A DNA stretch of 33,339 nt, from the IMG/VR virus record IMGVR_UViG_2671180294_000014; one strand, written 5' to 3'. A program made the translations under genes and the position numbers. This DNA comes from a virus (lineage: Duplodnaviria; Heunggongvirae; Uroviricota; Caudoviricetes). Positions 1 to 33,339 of this stretch are shown in pieces; position 1 is the first letter of the stretch; each line of letters opens with the position of its first letter. A model generated the notes under the pieces. That model was not told the DNA's origin. It searched no databases and worked only from the letters and a program-made list of their open reading frames with translations.

Positions 1-981
1 TTATAACGTCACTCCGCCTTTTAGTGGATTCAGAGCGACGGCATTTTGCAGATAGTCAGGCGCAAGGTGCGCATAGGCCATCGTCTGCTGAATGCTCGCA
101 TGTCCCAGAATCTGTTGCAGTGCGATTATATTGCCCCCATTCATCATGAAATGGCTTGCGAATGTATGCCGCAGGATGTGGGTTGCCTGATTGGGTGGTA
201 TATCAGGTTTCACTCTGCGTAAAATCCCGCAAAATTTCTCATAATCAACTTTGAATAATTTGGCGCTGGCCTCCTCTTTAACTTTTTTCTCCAGTTCCTC
301 AGAAATCGGCACGGTTCGCTTTTTACCGTTTTTGGTTTTCAGGAAGGTAACCCTGCAATTTGTAATCTGTGCTGGTTTTAGCGTGGCAACTTTCGTCCAT
401 CTTCCTCCAGTGCTCAGACATAAAAGCGCGACAAGTAAGTCATCACCAGCCAAAACATTTAACAGTTTTTCGATTTCTGCTTTTTCCAGGAACGTCATTT
501 CAGGGTTGGCCTCCGCCAGTGGCGGCAGTCCGTGAATTGGGTGTTGCCCGGAAAATTCATCCAATTGAATTAATTTTGTGAACATGCCGGATAATCTGTA
601 CATGTCACGGTTTATCGTTGCGGCACTGATACCATCACGTAGTCGCATGGAACGATAATCCATCAAAGCCCTTTTGCTCATCCTGCTCACTGGTATATCA
701 CCTATGCCGCTGATGGTTTTGAGTAGATGATTAAACTCTTTTGTTCCATGCTCGTGGTTTTGCCCGTGATATTTCCACCAGATGTCCAGCAACTCACTCA
801 AAGTCCGGCGGTCTGCTCGCTGGCCTCCCCATTCTTTCTGACTGGCATTGGCGATTGTGTATCGCTCAAATGCTAGTGCTTCAGCTTTTCTTTCGAATTT
901 CCTGCGGATGCGTTTTCCGTCGCGACCGCGAGGTCTAATGTCCACTTCATAGCGACCATCATCGAGCTTCTTAATTGCCAT
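1..981 (-). CDS. int: Tyrosine integrase (P2 Int family)
   Basis: The protein starts MAIKKLDDGRYEVDIRP like P2 Int, and the C-terminal HxLRHTFAS...Y catalytic region is present. ATG at 981 is preceded by GGAGGG. The ORF-track start at 1011 adds 10 aa with no homologue. The stop codon is at 1-3. Confidence 0.95.
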   Translation of the reverse strand: MAIKKLDDGRYEVDIRPRGRDGKRIRRKFERKAEALAFERYTIANASQKEWGGQRADRRTLSELLDIWWKYHGQNHEHGTKEFNHLLKTISGIGDIPVSRMSKRALMDYRSMRLRDGISAATINRDMYRLSGMFTKLIQLDEFSGQHPIHGLPPLAEANPEMTFLEKAEIEKLLNVLAGDDLLVALLCLSTGGRWTKVATLKPAQITNCRVTFLKTKNGKKRTVPISEELEKKVKEEASAKLFKVDYEKFCGILRRVKPDIPPNQATHILRHTFASHFMMNGGNIIALQQILGHASIQQTMAYAHLAPDYLQNAVALNPLKGGVTL

Positions 982-5796: not shown

Positions 5797-5882
5797 CTCA
5801 ATAAATATGAGTTTATAAGTTAGGCCTCGAGATTTTGTAGAAAGGGATGTATACTGAGTATCGTATAGATTTGGAGTGAGTG

Positions 5883-6905
5883 ATGACTGTAAAGGTGATA
5901 GACCTTTTTTGTGGTGCTGGCGGATTAACTCATGGTTTGCAGCTTGCGGGGCTTGATGTCGTTGCAGGCATTGACCTTGAGGGGGAATGTAGGTTTCCCT
6001 ATGAAAGAAACAATAAATCTAAGTTTATTGAGCAAGATATCGCTAAAGTAACAAAAGAGGAACTGCTGAGGCTTTATGGTGATGCGTCTGTAAAAGTATT
6101 GGCAGGATGCGCACCTTGCCAACCTTTTTCAAAATATACTCAAGGAAAAGATAAGGCTGATGATAAAAAATGGCCTCTTCTTTATGAGTTCGAACGTTTA
6201 ATTCGCGAAGTATCTCCAGAAATCGTAACAATGGAGAACGTTCCTGATGTAACTAAACATAAAGTTTATAATGATTTTTATAATTCATTGTTAAAGTTGG
6301 GCTATTATGTTTGGGCGTCTAAGATTGATTGTGTCGAATATGGAATCCCACAAAACCGTTCCCGTCATGTATTGTTGGCCTCAAAATTGGGGGCGATTGA
6401 GTTAGTAAAACGTGACGATGTTATTTTGAAAACAGTTAGAGATGCAATAGGAAATCTTCCTCCATTAGAAGATGGCCAAACAGATCCAAATGATATATTA
6501 CATAGAGCCAGTAAATTAAATCCGATTAATAAAAAAAGAATTATACACTCTGTTCCTGGTGGTACATGGAAGGACTGGCCGAAAGAGTTGGTTGCCGCTT
6601 GTCATATGAAATCCAGCGGTAAAGGGTATGCTAGTGTATATGGGCGCATGTCTTGGGATAAGCCAAGTCCAACAATTACAACTCTTTGTTATGGTTTCGG
6701 GAATGGGCGTTTTGGACATCCAGAACAGCATAGAGCGATTTCTCTTAGAGAGGCTGCTTTATTGCAAACTTTCCCGATGGATTATATTTTTGTAGAAGAC
6801 AAAAACAAGTTTGTTATAAGAAGTATTGGGAAAATGATAGGTAATGCTGTTCCTGTGGAACTAGGAAAAGCAATTGGGCAATCAATCAAGAACCATTTAG
6901 AATGA
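5883..6905 (+). CDS. DNA (cytosine-5) methyltransferase
   Basis: Canonical C5-MTase motifs are present: I DLFCGAGG, IV GCAPCQPFS, VI TMENVPDV, VIII QNRSRHVLLAS, IX-like RMSWDKPSPTITT, and X GNAVPVELG. GGAG lies 6 nt upstream of ATG 5883. The gene is AT-rich and has no P2 counterpart. Confidence 0.93.
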   Translation: MTVKVIDLFCGAGGLTHGLQLAGLDVVAGIDLEGECRFPYERNNKSKFIEQDIAKVTKEELLRLYGDASVKVLAGCAPCQPFSKYTQGKDKADDKKWPLLYEFERLIREVSPEIVTMENVPDVTKHKVYNDFYNSLLKLGYYVWASKIDCVEYGIPQNRSRHVLLASKLGAIELVKRDDVILKTVRDAIGNLPPLEDGQTDPNDILHRASKLNPINKKRIIHSVPGGTWKDWPKELVAACHMKSSGKGYASVYGRMSWDKPSPTITTLCYGFGNGRFGHPEQHRAISLREAALLQTFPMDYIFVEDKNKFVIRSIGKMIGNAVPVELGKAIGQSIKNHLE

Positions 6906-6911
6906 TAAAAT

Positions 6912-6928
6912 GGCCTGCTTTACAGGCC
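6912..6928. terminator. Stem-loop shared by the converging methyltransferase and HEPN genes (candidate bidirectional terminator)
   Basis: GGCCTG-CTTTA-CAGGCC sits between the two stop codons (6903-6905 and 6935-6937). It has A/T-rich flanks on both sides. Confidence 0.55.
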
Positions 6929-6934
6929 TTATAA

Positions 6935-7615
6935 CTATTGTTCTAAATATTCATTATTATTTATATAGTGCTCTATATTATTCACGATAGCATCAAGATA
7001 GGCGATTACTTCTAATGAAATATTCTCTAAGTCCTGATATGAAACATTTTTTCCAATCTCAGCAAATGATACATTGCCATGAGATAAATCATTACGATGT
7101 TGTTTAACAGTGGCTAATTTTTCACCATGTTTAGTGTGAGTGTAATCGGAATGTGTAGAAAAACCATATATTTTCGATTTTTCTTTGATTTCCTCTCTAT
7201 CAATATTTCCTGAGAATATTTTCTTTTTGTTGAACGTGCCATAAGATATACCGCAAGATATACCTTTGGTAAGGTGATTAACTAAACTTTCAACATTTAC
7301 AGATTCATTTTTTAATCTTTTTAATATTTCTGACCTGAGATTTTTCCTGAGTTTGTCAAATTCTACGTTTCTATCATAAATAGTCTCATGAATAAGGCAG
7401 ATAGCTTCTCTCATTGTTGATTCAATGAGGTTATATAACAGTATATATACTGCTCCCTTTAGAGTTTTTCGTGATTGAGCAGTAATGGAGAACTTATGTT
7501 CTTTATCATCAGCTGATATCAGTTCTGCACCGGCATACTCAATAAATTTCAAAAGATCCAAATAGGCCAAGATCTCTCCTGACCTTTCGTCAAAATCCTC
7601 ACGAAAACGATCCAT
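6935..7615 (-). CDS. Stand-alone HEPN-domain protein (predicted RNase-type effector)
   Basis: The 226-aa protein looks helical. An R-x4-H motif, RNDLSH (residues 174-179, nt 7079-7096), lies near the C-terminus. It resembles the family usually annotated as MAE_28990/MAE_18760 HEPN-like nuclease (from memory). Its ATG lies 1 nt after the upstream gene's stop. Confidence 0.75.
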   Translation of the reverse strand: MDRFREDFDERSGEILAYLDLLKFIEYAGAELISADDKEHKFSITAQSRKTLKGAVYILLYNLIESTMREAICLIHETIYDRNVEFDKLRKNLRSEILKRLKNESVNVESLVNHLTKGISCGISYGTFNKKKIFSGNIDREEIKEKSKIYGFSTHSDYTHTKHGEKLATVKQHRNDLSHGNVSFAEIGKNVSYQDLENISLEVIAYLDAIVNNIEHYINNNEYLEQ

Positions 7616-7616
7616 G

Positions 7617-8759
7617 TTAATCCTCTAATAATTTATCCCGAACATATTCAATTCGTTCAATTACCTTCACGCGACTATTAGCTCCGTCGGAAGTGGTCAA
7701 TCGTTTGAATTCTTCTGAGCTTAGCCAATCTAAGTTCTTGGGAACAAGGTCAGGGACTTCACGTAATGCAAGTGCTGCGCCAACAGCGAGAGATTCGAAT
7801 CTAACTCGAGGTGTAGATTTTGCAGTAATAGTTTTCTTGAATCCTGCTGGGAAATAGTTTTCAACAAAAGATAGAACATTAGCAAACTCTTGTTTCATTG
7901 AGTTTTGTTTAGTTTCGTCTATATCTCGATTTTCTGACATATAGTCATTTAGAAAATCCCGTACGGAATGATCAAAGTTCTTGTACTTATCTACGTAGGC
8001 AAAGAATCTTAATGTAAATTCTAACCGTTCATCTCGTTTTTCTTTAGTCTGAGATAAAGGTGCTAATTCTTTAAATTTAGGTATTGTTGAGCATGGCTTA
8101 ATAACCTGTGTATATAAATTTGTTGAACCAAGTTCTGATCCTTTACGGACTTCCATATCTTTCAATATATCGCTGCCAGAGTTAATACGCTCAAAAAGAT
8201 CTCTACGGGTTTCTTCATTGCATTTAGAACTCAATTCTATAACGCGGACAGGAATTCTCATGAAACGACGTTGACGTGATAATGGTAAATCTTGGAATTT
8301 GAAACCATTAAGGACGTCTAAAGATTTCAGGTCTTGTAAAACTAATTCATTTTGGATAAAAGCGTGTATAGTCCTAACTCGTTGTGAGCCATCAACAATC
8401 TCAATTCGCCCATCTAAATCGGGATCTTCGGAGAGAACATCTGCTATAAATATATATGGTATAGGAAAACCCAAAATCAAAGACTCTATCAATTTTGATT
8501 GTCTTTTTTCACTCCAAACAAAATCCCTTTGATAATCAGGAACAAAGAGTTCGTTAGTATCATCCTCTAATCCGTTATGATACTTATTAACTAATAACTC
8601 AACGGTAAATTCTTTGGTCTCAAAATCCACATCCTTTTGCTCAGCACGAATTTGCTCTTCAGCGTTTTGCTTTATCACCTCTAGCTGAGCAAGCAACTCT
8701 GCTCTTTTCTTGGCATTATCTTCATTTTCTAGTTGAGATTTTAAATCAATAATGTCCAT
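7617..8759 (-). CDS. DUF262 (ParB/Srx-like NTPase domain) protein with an N-terminal coiled coil and no fused nuclease domain
   Basis: DUF262 hallmarks are present: VPDYQRDFVWS and IVDGSQR (nt 8379-8393). ATG at 8759 is preceded by AAGGGA; the ORF-track start at 8777 is a TTG extension. I see no DUF1524/His-Me motif in the C-terminal half. Confidence 0.8.
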   Translation of the reverse strand: MDIIDLKSQLENEDNAKKRAELLAQLEVIKQNAEEQIRAEQKDVDFETKEFTVELLVNKYHNGLEDDTNELFVPDYQRDFVWSEKRQSKLIESLILGFPIPYIFIADVLSEDPDLDGRIEIVDGSQRVRTIHAFIQNELVLQDLKSLDVLNGFKFQDLPLSRQRRFMRIPVRVIELSSKCNEETRRDLFERINSGSDILKDMEVRKGSELGSTNLYTQVIKPCSTIPKFKELAPLSQTKEKRDERLEFTLRFFAYVDKYKNFDHSVRDFLNDYMSENRDIDETKQNSMKQEFANVLSFVENYFPAGFKKTITAKSTPRVRFESLAVGAALALREVPDLVPKNLDWLSSEEFKRLTTSDGANSRVKVIERIEYVRDKLLED

Positions 8760-8944
8760 GTCTAGTTCCCTTAACAAGTGTTAAAAATTGAAGCGGATAG
8801 CATACCGCATAGATCATGAAAAATGCCATCATGTGCATGGATTTGCATGCGTCAGAAGTCGCTTTTATTGTTAGTTATCACTAGCGCTGGCGTGCTCTTG
8901 GAGTGTTCATGCAACTGCATTAAAACCGCCCCATGAAGCGGGCG

Positions 8945-30739: not shown

Positions 30740-31902
30740 TGCTGGATGCGCTGACATTTGATGCAGGCAGTACGCTGACGCCGGATTACATGCTGATGCT
30801 CGACAGCAGGGATATTACCGGCAATATCAGCGACCGTCTGATGAGCATGACCCTGACGGATAACCGGGGCTTTGAGGCTGACCAGCTTGATATTGAACTG
30901 AACGATGCCGACGGGCAGGTCGGGCTGCCGGTTCGTGGCGCTGTCCTGACGGTGTATATCGGCTGGAAAGGTTTTGCCCTGGTATGCAAAGGGAAATTTA
31001 CCGTTGATGAGGTTGAACACCGGGGCGCGCCGGATGTGGTCACCATCCGCGCCCGGAGTGCAGATTTTCGCGGGACGCTCAATTCCCGCCGTGAAGGCTC
31101 ATGGCATGACATTACGCTCGGTGCGATTGTTGAGGCGATAGCCTCCCGTAACAGGCTGGAAGCCAGTGTCGCTCCGTCACTGGCCGGAATAAAAATTCCA
31201 CACATCGACCAGTCGCAGGAGTCTGATGCGAAATTCCTGACCCGTCTTGCTGAACGCAACGGCGGCGAGGTGTCGGTAAAAATGGGAAAACTGCTGTTTC
31301 TCAAAGCGGGGCAGGGGGTGACGGCCAGCGGTAAAAAAATCCCGCAGATTACCATCACCCGCAGCGACGGCGACCGTCATCATTTTGCGATTGCTGACCG
31401 TGGAGCTTACACCGGCGTAACGGCAAAGTGGTTACACACCAAAGACCCGAAGCCGCAAAAGCAGAAGGTAAAACTGAAACGCAAAAAGAAAGAAAAACAC
31501 CTGCGCGCACTGGAGCACCCGAAAGCGAAACCGGTCACGCAGAAGAAAGCGCCAAAAGTACCGGAAGCGCGCGAAGGTGAATACATGGCCGGTGAAGCTG
31601 ACAACGTTTTTGCCCTGACCACGGTATATGCCACAAAAGCGCAGGCCATGCGCGCCGCTCAGGCGAAGTGGGATAAACTGCAACGGGGTGTAGCGGAGTT
31701 CTCCATCAGCCTGGCTACCGGTCGTGCAGATATTTACACGGAAACACCGGTTAAAGTGTCAGGCTTTAAGCGCGTCATAGACGAGCAGGACTGGACCATC
31801 ACTAAGGTGACACATTGTCTCAATAATAGCGGCTTCACGACGTCCTTGGAGCTTGAGGTAAGGCTTTCTGATGTGGAGTACGAAACAGAAGATGATGAGT
31901 GA
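30739..31902 (+). CDS. D: Tail/late protein D
   Basis: 387 aa. It matches P2 gpD by recall. Confidence 0.95.
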   Translation: MLDALTFDAGSTLTPDYMLMLDSRDITGNISDRLMSMTLTDNRGFEADQLDIELNDADGQVGLPVRGAVLTVYIGWKGFALVCKGKFTVDEVEHRGAPDVVTIRARSADFRGTLNSRREGSWHDITLGAIVEAIASRNRLEASVAPSLAGIKIPHIDQSQESDAKFLTRLAERNGGEVSVKMGKLLFLKAGQGVTASGKKIPQITITRSDGDRHHFAIADRGAYTGVTAKWLHTKDPKPQKQKVKLKRKKKEKHLRALEHPKAKPVTQKKAPKVPEAREGEYMAGEADNVFALTTVYATKAQAMRAAQAKWDKLQRGVAEFSISLATGRADIYTETPVKVSGFKRVIDEQDWTITKVTHCLNNSGFTTSLELEVRLSDVEYETEDDE

Positions 31903-31983
31903 CGTGGTTTATTTATCTGTTTGTTTTATAAGGATAAATTAACTAAAATGGCACCATCAACAAAACCGGAAGAGGTGCTCGCG

Positions 31984-32202
31984 ATGTTTCATTGTCCTTT
32001 ATGCCAGCATGCCGCACATGCGCGTACAAGTCGCTATATCACTGACACGACAAAAGAGCGTTATCACCAGTGCCAGAACGTGAATTGCAGCGCCACGTTC
32101 ATCACTTATGAGTCGGTACAGCGATACATCGTGAAGCCGGGAGAAGTCCACGCCGTAAGGCCGCACCCGTTGCCGTCAGGGCAGCAAATTATGTGGATGT
32201 GA
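31984..32202 (+). CDS. ogr: Late transcription activator Ogr (zinc finger)
   Basis: From ATG 31984 the protein reads MFHCPLCQHAAHARTSRYITDTTKERYHQCQNVNCSATF..., 72 aa as in P2 Ogr. The ORF-track start at 31921 is an extension. Confidence 0.95.
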   Translation: MFHCPLCQHAAHARTSRYITDTTKERYHQCQNVNCSATFITYESVQRYIVKPGEVHAVRPHPLPSGQQIMWM

Positions 32203-32212
32203 TCAAAAAAAT

Positions 32213-32239
32213 AGCCCCTCAGTTGAGGGGCTTATTTAT
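32213..32239 (+). terminator. Terminator after ogr
   Basis: AGCCCCTC-AGTT-GAGGGGCT is followed by TATTTAT. An A7 run upstream makes it potentially bidirectional. Confidence 0.6.
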
Positions 32240-32244
32240 GGTCG

Positions 32245-32299
32245 ATGTGGACGCTATGTGGACAGCGGTTGACATAAATCCATTTATATCATCAGGTTA
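32245..32299. promoter_or_regulatory. Candidate att arm, with two direct ATGTGGAC repeats (Int arm-type sites?) and an IHF-like site
   Basis: ATGTGGAC occurs at 32245-32252 and 32256-32263 (11-bp period). TATCATCAGGTTA at 32287-32299 resembles the IHF consensus WATCAANNNNTTR. The location between ogr and the chromosomal junction fits the P2 attP arm layout. Function is inferred. Confidence 0.4.
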
Positions 32300-32329
32300 G
32301 GTACTTTTTTGTGACACCATCCCTGTCTT

Positions 32330-32355
32330 CCCCCACATGATGTGGGGGTTTTTTT
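32330..32355 (+). terminator. Rho-independent terminator at the prophage/chromosome junction, probably the cpxP/CpxQ terminator and att core region
   Basis: CCCCCAC-ATGAT-GTGGGGG is followed by T7. The preceding gacaccatccctgtcttccccc resembles my memory of the CpxQ sRNA 3' part. Confidence 0.6.
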
Positions 32356-32436
32356 ATCCTCAATTTGCCTGCTGCTTAATGCATTGCAGATGATTTGCTT
32401 CCGTTATACTAGCGTCAGTTGATAGCGGGAGTATTT

Positions 32437-33339
32437 ATGAATCAATCTTATGGACGGCTGGTCAGTCGGGCGGCGATTGCTGCGACGGCGATGGCTTCGC
32501 TGCTATTGCTGATTAAAATTTTTGCATGGTGGTATACCGGGTCGGTGAGTATTCTCGCCGCGCTGGTGGATTCGCTGGTGGATATCGGCGCGTCGTTGAC
32601 GAATTTACTGGTGGTGCGATATTCCCTGCAACCTGCCGACGATAATCACTCGTTTGGTCACGGTAAAGCTGAGTCCCTCGCGGCGCTGGCGCAAAGTATG
32701 TTTATCTCCGGTTCGGCACTATTCCTGTTTTTGACGGGTATTCAACATCTGGTATCTCCAACACCGATGACAGATCCAGGCGTCGGGGTTATCGTGACAA
32801 TTGTGGCGCTAATTTGTACGATTATCCTTGTCTCGTTTCAGCGGTGGGTGGTGCGCCGGACGCAAAGCCAGGCGGTGCGGGCTGATATGCTACATTACCA
32901 GTCTGATGTTATGATGAACGGCGCAATTCTGCTGGCGCTGGGGTTGTCCTGGTACGGCTGGCATCGCGCCGATGCTCTGTTTGCATTGGGAATCGGCATC
33001 TATATTTTATATAGCGCGTTACGCATGGGATATGAGGCGGTACAGTCATTACTGGATCGCGCATTGCCTGATGAGGAACGGCAAGAAATTATTGATATCG
33101 TGACTTCCTGGCCGGGTGTTAGCGGCGCTCACGATCTTCGCACGCGGCAGTCAGGGCCGACCCGCTTTATTCAGATTCATTTGGAAATGGAAGACTCTCT
33201 GCCTTTGGTTCAGGCACATATGGTGGCGGATCAGGTAGAGCAGGCTATTTTACGGCGTTTTCCGGGATCGGATGTAATTATCCATCAGGACCCCTGTTCC
33301 GTCGTACCCAGGGAGGGTAAACGGTCTATGCTTTCATAA
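32437..33339 (+). CDS. fieF: Cation-efflux (Zn/Fe) transporter FieF/YiiP, CDF family (chromosomal)
   Basis: From ATG 32437 the protein reads [47 protein letters not shown]... It is 300 aa and matches E. coli FieF by recall. The ORF-track start at 32419 is a TTG extension. Confidence 0.96.

Follow-up and report, generated by a model that had tools for sequence, protein, structure and literature searches.

A probable right attachment site of a Wphi-type P2-like prophage within the CpxQ-encoding 3' end of cpxP

Organization of the right end of the prophage

The window analysed here is the whole stretch of 33,339 nucleotides of a virus of the class Caudoviricetes (IMG/VR virus record IMGVR_UViG_2671180294_000014). 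Between positions 31700 and 33339, the reading order was found to be the end of the D gene, ogr, a terminator, arm repeats, an AT-rich stretch, the core of an attachment site, a noncoding segment and fieF. The features of the window on which the analysis is based are as follows.

1..981, − strand: int, tyrosine integrase, at the left prophage end; the window opens with the int stop codon
31984..32202, + strand: ogr, late-gene activator, an open reading frame with the translation MFHCPLCQ...; the final phage gene before attR
32213..32240, + strand: ogr terminator from the terminator scan, hairpin AGCCCCTCAGTTGAGGGGCT (32213-32232) and interrupted T tract
32245..32264, + strand: two direct Int arm-type repeats of the P arm, ATGTGGAC(g) and ATGTGGAC(A), starting at 32245 and 32256, 11 bp apart
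32287..32299, + strand: weak IHF-like motif TATCATCAGGTTA, one mismatch to WATCAANNNNTTR, between the arm repeats and the core
32313..32358, + strand: att core, 46 bp in the window; left edge at the start of homology to the empty site, right edge at the end of homology to free phages
32317..32323, + strand: CCATCCC, candidate overlap region, the 7 bp that separate the inverted repeats GACA (32313-32316) and TGTC (32324-32327)
32330..32355, + strand: Rho-independent terminator of CpxQ/cpxP, hairpin 32330-32348 and T7, with a polymorphic loop base at 32340
32359..32436, + strand: chromosomal B' flank, the fieF upstream region of 78 bp, noncoding, identical in empty-site genomes and undisturbed by the insertion
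32437..33339, + strand: fieF, encoding a CDF cation-efflux transporter, the nearest host gene on the right side of the prophage, running to the window end

The start of fieF is located at 32437, not at 32438. The region matching ogr in E. coli genomes and in phages carries the annotation ogrK or ogr. The hairpin of the ogr terminator is GC-rich, and the terminator scan called it on the − strand as well. In phage P2, attP includes a short core, two pairs of arm sites and, within the P arm, an IHF site. A preliminary description of this DNA had assigned the sequence left of the core to phage, naming ogr, its terminator, the ATGTGGAC repeats and an IHF-like site. The first three were all located. 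For the IHF-like site, the motif itself was recovered, but matches of the IHF type with one mismatch numbered 23 in the window against 27 expected from shuffles. As such matches are no commoner than in shuffled sequence, TATCATCAGGTTA is positionally plausible only, its position alone fitting the P2 attP layout.

Identity of the core block with CpxQ

The segment 32313-32355 reads gacaccatccctgtcttcccccacatgatgtgggggttttttt and is followed by ATC at 32356-32358, the whole block 32313-32358 being GACACCATCCCTGTCTTCCCCCACATGATGTGGGGGTTTTTTTATC. In the RefSeq genome of MG1655 (NC_000913.3), the ncRNA cpxQ (b4716) is annotated as a 58-nt sequence, TTTTCCTTGCCATAGACACCATCCCTGTCTTCCCCCACATGCTGTGGGGGTTTTTTTT, that begins 9 nt past the cpxP stop codon, in agreement with the 58-nt length reported for CpxQ (PMC6755755). 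The window block was found to correspond to CpxQ nucleotides 15-57 plus ATC, and the sole difference from MG1655 is A for C at nucleotide 42 (32340). The 43-nt match to CpxQ is far beyond chance, and the resemblance to the 3' part of CpxQ noted in the preliminary description was thus borne out. The hairpin CCCCCACAT-G-ATGTGGGGG (32330-32348) with T7 was called by the scan as an intrinsic terminator on the + strand, and it also folds as one. The terminator hairpin and U tail, which make up the Hfq-binding module, are therefore present in the window copy, with T7 in place of T8.

RNase E processing of the cpxP 3' UTR yields CpxQ, an sRNA dependent on Hfq, of which the window holds nucleotides 15-57 including the terminator. 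The window copy differs from CpxQ, however, in the lack of nucleotides 1-14, of the cpxP promoter and of the cpxP transcript. The phage P arm stands in place of the 5' UUUUCCUUGCCAUA, so that the full 58 nt from the RNase E site after the cpxP stop are not contained in the window copy. Neither the cpxP 3' UTR nor the CpxR-dependent cpxP promoter precedes it; instead the block comes after ogr and the ogr terminator. The cpxP gene is located about 33 kb away, at attL, where the functional copy of CpxQ lies outside the window. On its sequence, the window copy is a truncated and promoterless fragment, not a CpxQ gene.

CpxQ spans nearly the whole cpxP 3' UTR and is exceptionally conserved (PMC9438474), and an exact 32-nt match in more than 25 genera fits this reported conservation. 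At Rfam gathering thresholds, no match was obtained in the window, and no Rfam family is named CpxQ. The best sub-threshold match was RF02628 'Hrs1' (Hfq-regulated sRNA 1), at 32312-32355 on the − strand, with 29 bits against a threshold of 56.4. In Mixta, Erwinia and Pantoea, Hrs1 exceeded the gathering score over the cpxP 3' UTR/CpxQ, on the opposite strand (matching loci L021 5282-5355, L102 5958-6030, L108 4969-5042, L112 586-659 and L119 5502-5574). The Hrs1 model opens with A7-8, followed by a hairpin that equals the terminator read backwards. From this arrangement Hrs1 seems to model CpxQ on the wrong strand, which would explain why Rfam finds no CpxQ.

Mapping of the attachment sites

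Positions 32100-32700 of the window were compared by megablast with 5426 complete E. coli genomes, all of which matched. For prophage-free E. coli, homology was observed from query base 214 (window 32313) to the query end, and 712 of the 5426 genomes matched across both ogr and fieF. When positions 31900-32360 were searched against phage genomes, 94 records matched, and the homology stopped at window 32358. The segment 32313-32358 is common to host and phage, and it is therefore the att core. Chromosomal homology thus begins at the first base of the block and not right after the ogr terminator, the other start that had been considered.

The attB site was extracted from DL21 and MG1655, and the attP site from Wphi, fiAA91-ss, vB_YpM_22 and a circular 32.3-kb episome. 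The attL site was read in NC22, A10, Ryan-0026 and FDN-24, and attR was taken from the window and from those lysogens. All four att sites were found to share GACACCATCCCTGTCTTCCCCCACATG[A/C]TGTGGGGG-T8-ATC (47 bp), with T7 in the window, between the following flanks.

attB: 5' ...CCTTGCCATA; 3' CTCAATTTGCC...
attP: 5' ...CTTTTTTGT; 3' AAT(C/T)ACTTACA...
attL: 5' host; 3' phage
attR: 5' phage; 3' host

With its edges at 32313 and 32358, the core is identical in attP, attB, attL and attR, as is characteristic of an attachment site, and the free phage genomes and the circular 32.3-kb episome carry attP with this same core. The proposal that the att core overlaps the CpxQ/cpxP terminator was supported by this 46/47-bp block. 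A copy of the core near int on the left side had also been predicted. In lysogens with the same int, cpxP is followed by the complete CpxQ and then by a core identical to that of the window, and in these relatives the core at attL ends 131 bp before the int stop, a second repeat pair TGTGGACA lying in between. The cognate tyrosine integrase is accordingly located at the opposite prophage end, by attL. The P' arm of the relatives (NC22, A10 and Wphi) contains the arm pair TGTGGACAct ATGTGGACAc, and arm-type Int repeats, as direct pairs of the tgTGGaCa type, are thus placed on both sides of the core. The ATGTGGAC repeats of the window conform to tgTGGaCa, the arm-site consensus for Int of the P2 type (PMC3448106). 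As the window does not include attL, we infer the left junction of its own prophage from these relatives, which would place attL about 131 bp beyond position 1.

An attR identical to that of the window was absent from the complete E. coli genomes. The window has a private A at 32303, where G was present in all relatives seen, and the T7 tail was observed in attR of 3 of 785 genomes. Both the A at 32303 and the T7 tail may be real mutations of a copy not under selection, or else homopolymer errors of the sequencing.

Preservation of CpxQ and the nucleotide 42 marker

Preservation of CpxQ was examined using a 78-nt query composed of the cpxP end, CpxQ and ATC, with at least 80% query coverage as the criterion. 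The cpxP end and CpxQ were present at this coverage in 5426 of 5426 complete E. coli genomes, about 790 lysogens included, and every lysogen read directly carried the complete 58-nt CpxQ at attL. As CpxQ is present in all genomes including the lysogens, the sRNA is preserved; it is whole after integration, as in integration at the 3' end of an RNA gene with restoration. By this comparison, the prophage disrupts neither CpxQ nor the cpxP terminator.

MG1655 carries C at nucleotide 42 of CpxQ, in the terminator loop (window 32340; position 172 of locus L009), and 895 of 5426 genomes matched the C query exactly. The remaining E. coli genomes differ from the C query, and every such copy read directly was A, the allele of most E. 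coli. Among species representatives drawn from over 25 genera of Enterobacterales, 121 of 121 matches had A, which was also the base in all Wphi-type phages examined. Since nucleotide 42 is A across the other Enterobacterales sampled, C is a derived allele of E. coli. The marker was then counted at each type of junction with 96-nt junction-specific queries, under an E-value limit that leaves out empty sites.

attR: 788-789 genomes; exact C in 152, which may stem from few independent integrations owing to clonal sampling; exact A in 394
attL, commonest P' arm only (528 of about 790 lysogens): 528 genomes; exact C in 0; exact A in 338
phage attP: 43 records; exact C in 0; exact A in 35

At attL and attP, the C query was exactly one mismatch worse for every match listed. 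In Ryan-0026, FDN-24 and M217 (L010, L011 and M217), for which both junctions were read or matched, attL has A whereas attR has C. Because the host C is confined to attR and the phage A to attL, the crossover lies 5' of CpxQ nucleotide 42 (core position 28), and the 3' end of CpxQ in the lysogen is thus phage DNA.

The window copy had been described as the displaced chromosomal half of the site. This holds for the core 3' of the crossover, as indicated by the host C at attR, but not for the 5' part, which is phage. The further proposal that a phage-supplied half completes cpxP/CpxQ at attL was supported in the relatives, where the phage A allele is found at attL only. As to whether the prophage alters or preserves the sRNA, preservation was observed in 5426 of 5426 genomes, and in E. 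coli the change upon integration amounts at most to one loop base, in hosts that formerly carried C. At least 152 genomes are lysogens with C at attR; their functional CpxQ, at attL, carries A, the consensus of the enterobacterial species sampled. The fold energy was predicted to be equal for the A and C alleles (−17.4 kcal/mol). Upon integration the functional copy reverts to A, and no effect on envelope-stress regulation is expected.

Position of the crossover and use of the site in other genera

Both junctions were compared for six lysogens outside E. coli, belonging to Kluyvera, Citrobacter (two), Yokenella, Kosakonia and Pseudocitrobacter, in which the phage arms are quite different. In all six, the identity between attL and attR begins 2-3 nt before CCATCCC (2-4 nt over the divergent phage lineages as a whole), and in four of the six it extends as far as the final T of the tail. 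For Kosakonia, attL has T7, and the match between attL and attR covers G and seven T; for Pseudocitrobacter, the phage-supplied tail at attL reads GTC-T8. A spacer between inverted repeats is the usual core layout of tyrosine recombinases, and CCATCCC sits between (A)GACA and TGTC(T). By analogy with elements that integrate at tRNA genes, the overlap region is most likely located at or next to 32317-32323, in which case nearly all of CpxQ from nucleotide 19 on would be phage DNA in the lysogen. At tRNA sites, the identity block spans from the overlap region to the 3' end of the RNA that is to be rebuilt (PMC3448106).

P2-type prophages or their remnants were observed at the CpxQ 3' end in Pseudocitrobacter, Yokenella, Citrobacter, Kluyvera and Kosakonia (L022/L055, L026/L064, L070/L106, L130/L061, L048/L046 and L047). 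In Pseudocitrobacter vendiensis, the tail at attL is GGGGG-TC-T8, not GGGGG-T8, and here the prophage does alter the terminator tail of CpxQ. In C. amalonaticus P55, a spacing of only 1.8 kb between the attL-like and the attR-like copy points to a decayed element.

The sequence NZ_JBQJRQ010000002.1 ('plasmid unnamed3' of E. coli 2020N21-246-1; L003), annotated as a plasmid, is a circular P2-like phage genome of 32,330 bp. Its attP core, CACCATCC...T8ATC, is the same CpxQ block, and its arms and integrase are divergent. The type of its P' arm, ATCAGGTACTTAG, was also detected after CpxQ in Erwinia sp. OLFS4 (L102). The presence of divergent arms and integrase at the same core indicates that several integrase/arm lineages use this one RNA end as their target. 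Owing to its extreme conservation, CpxQ provides this phage family with a ready-made attB in many Enterobacterales genera.

Proposed mode of integration and alternative explanations

The segment 32240-32436 is, with high confidence, attR (P arm, core and B') of a Wphi-type P2-like (Peduovirus) prophage residing in the attB of the cpxP 3' UTR, the phage supplying the CpxQ end and CpxQ being kept. We propose that the tyrosine integrase would insert the prophage into attB within the cpxP 3' UTR, between cpxP and fieF. The phage carries its own CpxQ nucleotides 15-58 followed by ATC, a segment in which the hairpin and the U tail come after a portion of the single-stranded body. The crossover lies 5' of nucleotide 42, near the 5' end of this block and most likely in or next to CCATCCC. 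The resulting order at attL would be host cpxP, the 5' part of host CpxQ, the 3' part of phage CpxQ with the terminator, the P' arm and int. At attR, the order would be ogr, the P arm, the 5' part of the phage core, the original host 3' part with its terminator, and fieF. The lysogen thereby keeps a full-length CpxQ and a terminated cpxP, and the attR fragment would be a silent by-product, relevant to excision alone.

A different position of the crossover can be imagined from the phage allele, which gives a perfect 9-1-9 palindrome with a symmetry of the tyrosine-recombinase kind. The 9-bp arms CCCCCACAT and ATGTGGGGG would then serve as Int core sites and the loop at the palindrome centre as the overlap, the rest of the 47 bp being identical by descent. 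We consider this unlikely. A polymorphic base at 32340 would lie within or border on such an overlap, so that either both junctions should receive it or recombination should be blocked, whereas C was observed at attL in 0 of 528 genomes, yet at attR in 152. The hairpin palindrome as the crossover site is thus disfavoured by the allele asymmetry between attL and attR. In addition, the identity with the host in other lineages always reaches left to CA+CCATCCC, which a crossover in the loop does not need. The resemblance to CpxQ could also be regarded as that of any generic terminator, arising by chance, or the junction as the product of insertion that is not site-specific or of homologous recombination, in line with the lack of an above-threshold Rfam match in the window. 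Rfam, however, simply has no model named CpxQ, Hrs1 representing the same locus on the other strand. Apart from the allele at nucleotide 42, the match to the annotated cpxQ extends over 43 bases, and the exact breakpoints are common to hundreds of genomes and to the attP of free phages. Such explanations, which we regard as practically negligible, are refuted by the comparison of breakpoints in hosts, phages and the four sites.

Alternatively, transcription that passes the weak-tailed ogr terminator, for instance, might express the copy at attR or attP, and its processing would give a CpxQ-like Hfq-binding RNA that, in the lysogen or in the course of infection, acts on CpxQ targets or titrates Hfq. 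The fragment does keep the terminator hairpin, the U tail and 15 nt of unpaired body; the T tract of the ogr terminator is interrupted, TATTTATGG; and a U-rich phage sequence (CUUUUUUGU) directly precedes the core, resembling the processing region of the host. Nevertheless, a scan of 31900-32500 on both strands detected no sigma-70-like promoter, nor was any found within 400 bp upstream of the fragment. Moreover, a GC-rich terminator is located 80 nt upstream, and the first 14 nt of CpxQ are absent. The conserved bases are all explained by the identity with attB and by restoration of CpxQ at attL, and the attR copy tolerates changes in its tail (T7 in the window and GGGG-T9 in FDN-24). Expression of this copy is therefore judged to be very unlikely. 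The same low expectation applies to the idea that the 42-44-nt CpxQ 3' module next to ogr in the Wphi family is a phage-borne CpxQ mimic or Hfq decoy, produced from attP or attR through read-through of the ogr terminator late in infection, or at low level in lysogens. If true, such a mimic or decoy would tune the host response to inner-membrane stress.

Relation to known integration sites

The core of Wphi was reportedly found by Karlsson et al. in 2006 to be 47 nt in length. The original papers on Wphi predate CpxQ and, to our knowledge and as far as they are searchable, do not name it. In the genome of E. coli W, a prophage 'Wphi1 (P2)' is listed at 'cpxP-fieF' (PMC3032704, Table 2). The integration site of Wphi had been identified earlier, and the attP core of L-413C is identical to that of Wphi (PMC3448106). 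A 31-kb prophage is located between cpxP and fieF in an O157:H7 genome (PMC7609406), and a preprint on Salmonella Infantis gives 31.7 kb between the fieF and cpxP primers for a strain with the prophage phiESI. Since prophages at cpxP-fieF have been published, the site itself is known: the attB of Wphi at cpxP-fieF belongs to a very common prophage family. By full-text literature search, no paper was found to link CpxQ with a phage att site, a prophage or an integrase, and none to join the terms P2-like, cpxP and integration site. What is added here is modest, namely that the core equals the 3' 44 nt of CpxQ, that natural variation reveals the phage-supplied half, and that the site is used across many enterobacterial genera.

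Integration at the 3' end of RNA genes, for tRNA, tmRNA and sRNA alike, follows the same scheme, in which the 3' portion is carried by the phage and the block extends from the crossover to the RNA 3' end. Examples are phage 186 in tRNA-Ile, and Fels-2/SopEphi in ssrA. For P2-like prophages, sites at the rybB ncRNA and the cyaR RNA have been listed (PMC3032704, Table 2). Unlike these targets, CpxQ is not an independent gene but is cut from the 3' UTR of an mRNA; since this mRNA is that of cpxP, the same block also restores the cpxP terminator. An sRNA derived from a 3' UTR can thus be a phage attachment site, like tRNA and tmRNA genes. The practical value lies mainly in annotation: each such lysogen has a second, truncated CpxQ-like sequence before fieF, which should not be annotated as cpxQ.

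The prophage family and its variation

The window Int is identical to phage Wphi Int at 322 of 326 residues (98.5%), and the P arm of the window is nearly identical to that of Wphi. A 'phage integrase' with int DNA 95-99.9% identical is annotated in 790 E. coli genomes, and about 785-790 of the 5426 complete genomes carry this int and attR. A P2-like prophage thus occupies the cpxP-fieF position in about one-seventh of complete E. coli genomes. Wphi (Peduovirus Wphi) has the same 47-bp core, arm repeats and cpxP-fieF (yiiP) site. The window prophage is a mosaic relative of Wphi, from which it differs in its cargo, in tail-fibre segments, at 32303 and in T7 for T8. The gene order ogr-attP-int and the tgTGGaCa direct repeats on both arms are shared with the Int/IHF/Cox system of P2. 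Phage P2 uses other host sites, with a different and shorter core and imperfect matches. In contrast, the core of the window type is long and exact, because the RNA 3' end must be rebuilt.

A cargo slot, 5880-8777, between replication gene A and the portal gene, contains three open reading frames.

5880-6905, + strand: C5 cytosine methyltransferase (PADLOC MTase_II/DrmMII, E = 1e-90)
6935-7615, − strand: 226-aa open reading frame, no match
7617-8777, − strand: 386-aa NsnA/PD-T4-2_A-like protein (E = 2e-54)

Together the three have the appearance of an island for defence or restriction-modification. In E. coli A10, the related prophage holds cdtABC (cytolethal distending toxin) at this position. 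The prophage of Ryan-0026 (L010) is full of IS elements (IS150, ISEc22 and ISEc12), and a 2.2-kb insertion lies between ogr and the P arm, at the equivalent of window 32223-32243, yet its attR and attL are both intact. In EC22, homology to the window begins at 32243, and the P arm is present without ogr.
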